NCBI RefSeq assembly: GCF_041886205.1
Contig: NZ_CP169029.1
Direction: 5' to 3' (one strand)
DNA length: 64,000 bases
Source: Escherichia coli
GTDB lineage: Bacteria; Pseudomonadota; Gammaproteobacteria; Enterobacterales; Enterobacteriaceae
Shown here piece by piece: positions 32,146 to 33,816 of this stretch (positions are counted from its first letter, which is position 1; each line of letters starts with the position of its first letter). The notes beneath the pieces were generated by a model. That model was not told the origin of the DNA and made no database searches. It was given only the letters and a program-made list of their open reading frames with translations. The position numbers were made by a program, and so were the translations under genes.

Positions 32146-33816
32146 TTGCAATTTGACTACATCATTATTGGTGCCGGCTCAGCCGGCAACGTTCTCGCTA
32201 CCCGTCTGACTGAAGATCCGAATACCTCCGTCCTGCTGCTTGAAGCGGGCGGCCCGGACTATCGCTTTGACTTCCGCACCCAGATGCCCGCAGCGCTGGC
32301 GTTCCCACTACAGGGCAAACGCTACAACTGGGCCTATGAAACAGAGCCTGAACCGTTTATGAATAACCGCCGCATGGAGTGCGGACGCGGTAAAGGCCTG
32401 GGTGGATCGTCGCTGATCAACGGCATGTGCTACATCCGTGGCAATGCGCTGGATCTCGATAACTGGGCGCAAGAACCCGGTCTGGAGAACTGGAGTTATC
32501 TCGACTGCCTGCCCTACTACCGCAAGGCCGAGACTCGCGATGTGGGCGAGAACGACTACCACGGTGGCGATGGCCCGGTGAGCGTCACTACCTCCAAACC
32601 CGGCGTCAATCCGCTGTTTGAAGCGATGATTGAAGCGGGCGTGCAGGCGGGCTACCCGCGCACGGACGATCTCAACGGTTATCAGCAGGAAGGTTTTGGT
32701 CCGATGGATCGCACCGTCACGCCGCAGGGCCGTCGCGCCAGTACCGCGCGCGGTTATCTCGATCAGGCCAAATCGCGCCCTAACCTGACCATTCGTACTC
32801 ACGCTATGACCGATCACATCATTTTTGACGGCAAACGCGCGGTGGGCGTCGAATGGCTGGAAGGCGACAGCACCATCCCAACCCGCGCAACGGCCAACAA
32901 AGAAGTGCTGTTATGTGCAGGCGCGATTGCCTCACCGCAGATCCTGCAACGCTCCGGCGTCGGCAACGCTGAACTGCTGGCGGAGTTTGATATTCCGCTG
33001 GTGCATGAATTACCCGGCGTCGGCGAAAATCTTCAGGATCACCTGGAGATGTACCTGCAATATGAGTGCAAAGAACCGGTTTCCCTCTACCCTGCCCTGC
33101 AGTGGTGGAATCAGCCGAAAATCGGTGCGGAGTGGCTGTTTGGCGGCACCGGCGTTGGTGCCAGCAACCACTTTGAAGCAGGCGGATTTATTCGCAGCCG
33201 AGAGGAATTTGCGTGGCCGAATATTCAGTACCATTTCCTGCCAGTAGCGATTAACTATAACGGCTCGAATGCAGTGAAAGAGCACGGTTTCCAGTGCCAC
33301 GTCGGCTCAATGCGCTCGCCAAGCCGTGGGCATGTGCGGATTAAATCCCGCGACCCGCACCAGCATCCGGCGATTCTGTTTAACTACATGTCGCATGAGC
33401 AGGACTGGCAGGAGTTCCGCGACGCAATTCGCATCACCCGCGAGATCATGCATCAACCCGCGCTGGATCAGTATCGTGGCCGCGAAATCAGCCCCGGCAC
33501 GGAATGTCAGACGGATGAACAGCTCGATGAGTTCGTGCGTAATCACGCCGAAACCGCCTTCCATCCGTGCGGTACCTGCAAAATGGGTTACGACGAGATG
33601 TCCGTGGTTGACGGCGAAGGCCGCGTACACGGGTTAGAAGGCCTGCGTGTGGTGGATGCGTCGATTATGCCGCAGATTATCACCGGGAATTTGAACGCCA
33701 CGACAATTATGATTGGCGAGAAAATAGCGGATATGATTCGTGGACAGGAAGCGCTGCCGAGGAGCACGGCGGGATATTTTGTGGCAAATGGGATGCCGGT
33801 GAGAGCGAAAAAATGA
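32146..33816 (+). CDS. betA: choline dehydrogenase (GMC oxidoreductase), TTG start
   Basis: Track ORF starts at TTG 32101 with no in-frame ATG; start placed at TTG 32146, 6 nt after SD AGGAGG, giving (M)[14 protein letters not shown]... Confidence 0.9.

Follow-up and report, generated by a model that had tools for sequence, protein, structure and literature searches.

The TTG codon at the start of Escherichia coli betA is most probably its native initiation codon and is shared with K-12

The gene betA, the last of betIBA in Escherichia coli, raises a question at its very first codon: does it begin with TTG, and does it differ in this from the gene of K-12? A sequence-only reading of the window (the whole stretch of 64,000 nucleotides analyzed here) had placed initiation at the TTG at 32146 and, the K-12 protein beginning with MQFDY, had raised the possibility that the first codon differs between the two strains.

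The context of the gene matches the RefSeq annotation of the bet locus, in which betT is divergent from betI-betB-betA. In the window the gene for the choline BCCT transporter BetT lies on the minus strand (27897..29930) as a 677-aa ORF, and betT is annotated at the equivalent position in strain PT62 and in K-12. The remaining genes are on the plus strand: betI, coding for the repressor (30059..30646), which has an ATG start as in RefSeq and to which the PGAP coordinates in PT62 map; betB, coding for betaine-aldehyde dehydrogenase (30660..32132), with an ATG start that follows TAA CC GAGGAG ACGTG; and betA, coding for choline dehydrogenase (32146..33816; 556 aa plus stop). The product of betA scores 1033.7 bits (cutoff 732.1) against the NCBIfam equivalog TIGR01810 (choline dehydrogenase, GMC oxidoreductase), with residues 4-537 aligned to profile positions 1-532, and 1001.2 bits (cutoff 605) against NF002550, with residues 1-555 on profile positions 4-557. 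From its 99.6% identity to K-12 BetA, we infer that the protein oxidizes choline to betaine aldehyde.

Two further features of the window lie on either side of the bet genes. An IS1 copy at 35184-35952, which is 98.3% identical to an IS1 of strain PT62, interrupts an AraC-type helix-turn-helix gene situated 3' of betA. The ORF at 34545-35189 stops where it meets the IS, and the gene is intact in PT62 (858 nt). At 25420-25422 the window lacks 3259 bp that are present in the otherwise 100%-identical genomes wlxctx60 and 6EVA. The missing segment takes in almost the whole of pdeL (yahA) and, from the autotransporter adhesin gene ehaA, the 3' half, which encodes the C-terminal translocator portion; both genes are thus truncated in the window.

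The junction between betB and betA reads ATATTC TAA CC AGGAGG TTTAT TTG CAA TTT GAC TAC ATC ATT ATT GGT GCC GGC TCA GCC GGC AAC. On the plus strand, the betB stop codon TAA (32130-32132) is located 13 nt 5' of the betA start, the Shine-Dalgarno (SD) sequence AGGAGG occupies 32135-32140, and the 5-nt spacer TTTAT (32141-32145) separates it from the initiation codon TTG (32146-32148). K-12 MG1655 has the same codon, annotated there as the first of b0311. The distance of 5 nt from the end of AGGAGG to the TTG falls within the range of approximately 5-9 nt used as the SD spacing criterion for a UUG-initiated gene, and the coordinates in the sequence bear out the earlier statement that this TTG is the only start correctly spaced from the SD. 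The nearest upstream stop in the frame of betA is the TGA at 32086-32088, and the frame is open from 32089 onward. Between that TGA and 32146 the sole ATG, GTG or TTG codon in frame is a TTG at 32101, inside betB, which has no spaced SD and no ATG or GTG nearby; the absence of an in-frame ATG upstream, also noted in the sequence-only reading, is thereby confirmed as far back as the stop. The TTG at 32146 is in frame at the N-terminal boundary of the protein family, and there is no ATG or GTG alternative.

The same architecture, namely TAA, CC, a six-base SD, 5 nt and the start codon, is seen at the betI-betB junction (30644-30662) and at the betB-betA junction (32130-32148). The start codon differs between these otherwise like junctions, being ATG for betB and TTG for betA.

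For comparison with K-12 we used the region 324000-331000 of NC_000913.3 (MG1655), in which RefSeq annotates betA (b0311) at 325577..327247 on the minus strand, with TTG as the first codon and the same TAACCAGGAGGTTTAT before it. A 141-nt alignment across the betB-betA junction of the window and MG1655 has no mismatches, the TTG included, and the PGAP start of betA in strain PT62 is the same base. The suspected difference from K-12 therefore falls away: the nucleotide alignment that had been proposed as its check finds an annotated TTG start in a junction that is base-for-base identical, and a TTG in K-12 is the very observation that the sequence-only reading had named as refuting it. Both proteins, which are identical at 554/556 positions, are written MQFDY. 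The K-12 protein starts with 'M' because initiator fMet-tRNA decodes the UUG, and this letter is not evidence for an ATG.

The population of E. coli was surveyed in a collection of 5426 complete genomes. A 401-bp junction query recovered the locus in 5183 records, which represent 5179/5426 genomes. We then used a 55-mer spanning 32119-32173 with the T of the TTG at position 28, so that every 28-nt exact megablast word must include this T. The version with T matched 5183 records (5148 with 100% identity) in 5179 genomes, whereas the version with A in its place, corresponding to an ATG start, had no match among the 5426 genomes even at an E-value limit of 10. As the T version and the 401-bp query give equal counts, the T version accounts for every record with the locus; with T in 5183/5183 records and the ATG version in none, sequencing error is excluded as the source of the TTG, which is fixed in E. 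coli. One could suppose that an ancestral ATG had mutated in this strain alone, or had been misread in sequencing, and that the strain makes less BetA than K-12. This idea draws on nothing other than the M with which the K-12 protein begins, and deserves practically no credence in the face of the annotated TTG at the same position of MG1655, the T in all E. coli records with the locus and the TTG common to 13 other species among the matches listed (see below); the K-12 alignment and the 55-mer test together rule it out. As a separate observation, the betB-betA junction was unmatched in 247 of the 5426 complete genomes, and in ten cases it was on a plasmid record rather than the chromosome.

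A further possibility is that translation begins elsewhere, either at the TTG at 32101 within betB, which would add 15 residues, or at a downstream ATC or ATT codon. The open frame from 32089 permits the former, and in E. coli and Enterobacter the TTG at 32101 shares the betA frame. However, this codon has no spaced SD, it is out of frame in the Klebsiella and Raoultella loci, whose spacer contains one additional nucleotide, and in these organisms a stop lies 48 nt 5' of the codon for the Phe of FDY; we accordingly reject an extended ORF from 32101. The family profiles also stop at the annotated N-terminus, and the ATG-start relatives among the matches listed all begin 2-6 residues before FDY. 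The downstream ATC and ATT codons, in turn, are within the β-1 strand of the FAD-binding Rossmann motif and at least 20 nt from the SD. The GxGxxG of this motif (GAGSAG, residues 9-14) directly follows MQFDYIII, and since the choline dehydrogenase profiles align from residue 1-4 with the GxGxxG at residue 9, a start further downstream cannot be accommodated. Initiation elsewhere is thus very unlikely. The placement of the start at TTG 32146, as first proposed, is borne out by the spacing, by the RefSeq and PGAP starts in MG1655 and PT62 and by the profile alignment. We hold with high confidence that this TTG is the genuine native start of betA, and that rather than being strain-specific it is fixed in E. 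coli and common to the Enterobacter/Klebsiella/Citrobacter group. In this sense the TTG start was already known, as it is annotated in the reference genome, and it is a normal feature of the gene. The start codon of betA was the subject of no title or abstract found in a literature search, and b0311 has no entry in the portion of the TRAINSPOTTER N-terminomics supplement that was searched.

To place the codon in a wider phyletic context, one genome per species was scanned with a degenerate DNA pattern for a 14-residue N-terminal motif of BetA, a procedure that sampled only genes encoding this motif and yielded at least 120 loci. As the pattern sits 3' of the start, the start codon is not biased by it. 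At each locus the frame was followed upstream to the first stop, and the nearest canonical start was taken. Among the matches listed from these loci, 107 start with ATG and 13 with TTG. The listed TTG users are Enterobacter cloacae, E. asburiae, E. sichuanensis, E. wuhouensis, Enterobacter sp. BIGb0383 and an Enterobacter metagenome-assembled genome (MAG), Lelliottia nimipressuralis, Pseudocitrobacter faecalis, Citrobacter sp. R56, Klebsiella oxytoca, a Klebsiella MAG and Raoultella ornithinolytica (12 loci from 6 genera), together with an unclassified MAG labelled only Proteobacteria. The listed ATG users include Pantoea, Erwinia, Xenorhabdus, Kosakonia, Cedecea, Pseudomonas, Halomonas/Vreelandella, Salinicola and Acinetobacter, among others. 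The junction follows a single scheme in 13/13 of the listed TTG loci, TAA-CC-[A/G]GGAGG-(5 or 6 nt)-TTG-CA[A/G/T]-TTT-GAC, with a TGA stop in the unclassified MAG, and the SD is AGGAGG or GGGAGG in all of them.

In a neighbor-joining tree of BetA proteins, computed without support values, the TTG genes cluster as a single group, with the ATG genes of Trabulsiella and Pluralibacter inside or beside it. This suggests a single change from ATG to TTG at the base of the group, followed by one or two reversions. The 12 full-length genes of the TTG group differ from E. coli at 29-53% of four-fold degenerate sites in pairwise comparison, and only 24/214 such sites (11%) are invariant among them, while the T of the TTG has never changed. 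Judged by these comparisons, the TTG is old and stable within its enterobacterial group. The invariant T is also consistent with constraint, for which it is weak evidence, being a single site set against a neutral invariance rate of approximately 11% in species that are phylogenetically non-independent.

The ATG-start genes closest to the TTG group differ among themselves in their SD. The two Pluralibacter loci, one of them from a MAG, have GAGGGG, a weaker SD than those found in the TTG genes (AGGAGG or GGGAGG), and the Trabulsiella locus has GGAGG, which offers the same five-base match as GGGAGG. These three sequences hint that SD strength and start codon may compensate for each other.

Three loci with a label at odds with their junction were also encountered in the scan. 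Those of Pseudomonas sp. T1-3-2 (plasmid p1), Enterobacter ludwigii EnVs2 and Enterobacter sp. Bisph1 have a Pantoea/Kosakonia-type betB-betA junction, TAACCTGAGGA[G/A]CGAC[T/G]AATGGAATTTGATTAC, which suggests either that the organisms are mislabelled or that their bet genes were transferred horizontally.

Given this start, the next issue is what the codon does. In E. coli AUG, GUG and UUG start 83%, 14% and 3% of the genes, respectively; reporters with canonical non-AUG starts reach 10-100% of the level obtained with AUG, and the N-terminal residue obtained from canonical starts is Met (bioRxiv 10.1101/063800). For betA, initiator fMet-tRNA would read the UUG at 32146, such that BetA begins with Met as it does in K-12. 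De novo initiation at this near-cognate codon would be somewhat less efficient than at AUG, a deficit which the perfect AGGAGG at optimal spacing would partly offset. The 13-nt gap might offset it further in part, by letting ribosomes that terminate at the betB stop re-initiate on betA. The net effect would be a BetA output somewhat below that of BetB and dependent on it, and it is plausible that the TTG lowers BetA output relative to BetB.

Coupling of the two genes could conceivably also be structural: the SD and TTG of betA might be masked in a hairpin with the 3' end of betB (TCCATCCAGGTTGAGATGG), so that translation of betA would occur only once ribosomes completing betB had melted it. 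The minimum free energy fold pairs CCAUCC (32092-32097) with the GGAGG of the SD, and 32099-32111 with 32119-32134, and the betB arm lies in a stretch whose silent sites do not vary among Escherichia, Enterobacter, Klebsiella, Citrobacter and Pluralibacter. Yet the stability of the fold is no better than that of shuffled sequences (z = -0.72; 44/200 shuffles fold as well), and RNAalifold on seven species returned no compensatory pairs, a positive (that is, unfavorable) covariation term and a structure without the same SD pairing. With such a z-score against shuffles and no covariation in the seven species, the SD-masking hairpin is an unsupported lead and is improbable.

Independently of any fold, the conservation of this part of betB is an observation in its own right. 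The segment at 32091-32109 is invariant in the above five genera with its silent positions included, and in Trabulsiella a single silent base differs (GTT to GTC). By contrast, only 11% of the four-fold sites of betA are invariant.

A reading that survives considerably better, and that we regard as quite possible while stopping short of calling it probable, accepts the TTG as genuine and sees in it a neutral historical accident that became fixed in one enterobacterial lineage, with the output of BetA set by the SD, by coupling to betB and by BetI/ArcA-controlled transcription rather than by any selection in favor of a weak start. The use of ATG by Trabulsiella and Pluralibacter, nested in or beside the TTG clade, indicates that either codon is viable; ATG is the start in the 107 listed loci out of at least 120 from the scan, and a single unchanging site speaks only weakly for selection. 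On the other hand, the T is invariant across the 5183 E. coli records and the 13 listed species, over a divergence in which 89% of four-fold sites have changed, even though a change of T to A or T to G would still leave a working start. The SDs of the three closest ATG relatives speak in the same direction for Pluralibacter and its MAG, where the SD is the weaker one, and less so for Trabulsiella, where it equals that of most TTG loci; as a whole they are consistent with compensation at n=3.

Betaine aldehyde, the intermediate of the pathway, is reactive and toxic. A selective reading of the TTG would hold that this codon, the near-perfect SD and the 13-nt gap have been maintained together, keeping BetA below BetB and coupled to it and thereby limiting the accumulation of the toxic aldehyde, and that the unusually conserved 3' end of betB might take part in this coupling. 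We put this forward tentatively, as a possibility that is on the doubtful side.

For the practical question with which we began, the outcome is that the standard annotation of betA holds and the strain is no different from K-12, which in itself matters very little. Mildly useful for comparison is that one enterobacterial lineage starts betA with TTG and the others use ATG, in the same geometry as that of the ATG-initiated betB junction. This makes betIBA a clean natural test case for whether the choice of start codon tunes the proportions of enzymes when a pathway has a toxic intermediate.

The closest known counterpart of the gene is betA of K-12 MG1655 (b0311, NP_414845.1), which has the same AGGAGG, 5-nt spacer, TTG and gene order, with betT divergent from betI-betB-betA; the two BetA proteins are distinguished by only two substitutions, M133V and V452T, neither of them at the start. 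The BetA proteins of Pantoea, Erwinia, Xenorhabdus, Pseudomonas, Halomonas/Vreelandella and Acinetobacter belong to the same family and have the same N-terminal motif, and the betB-betA order is seen in enteric loci and in part of those of the Halomonas group. These genes from other Gammaproteobacteria differ in their start codon, which is ATG in all 107 listed, with N-termini 2-6 residues before FDY, whereas TTG among the matches listed is limited to the Escherichia/Enterobacter/Klebsiella/Citrobacter group. In its mode of initiation, betA resembles the canonical near-cognate UUG starts of E. coli, which likewise receive fMet from the initiator tRNA and have a strong, well-spaced SD. A different kind of non-AUG start is the AUU of infC, which has a regulatory role; for the UUG of betA there is no evidence of a comparable one, and it is with the ordinary UUG starts of E. 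coli that this codon is best compared.
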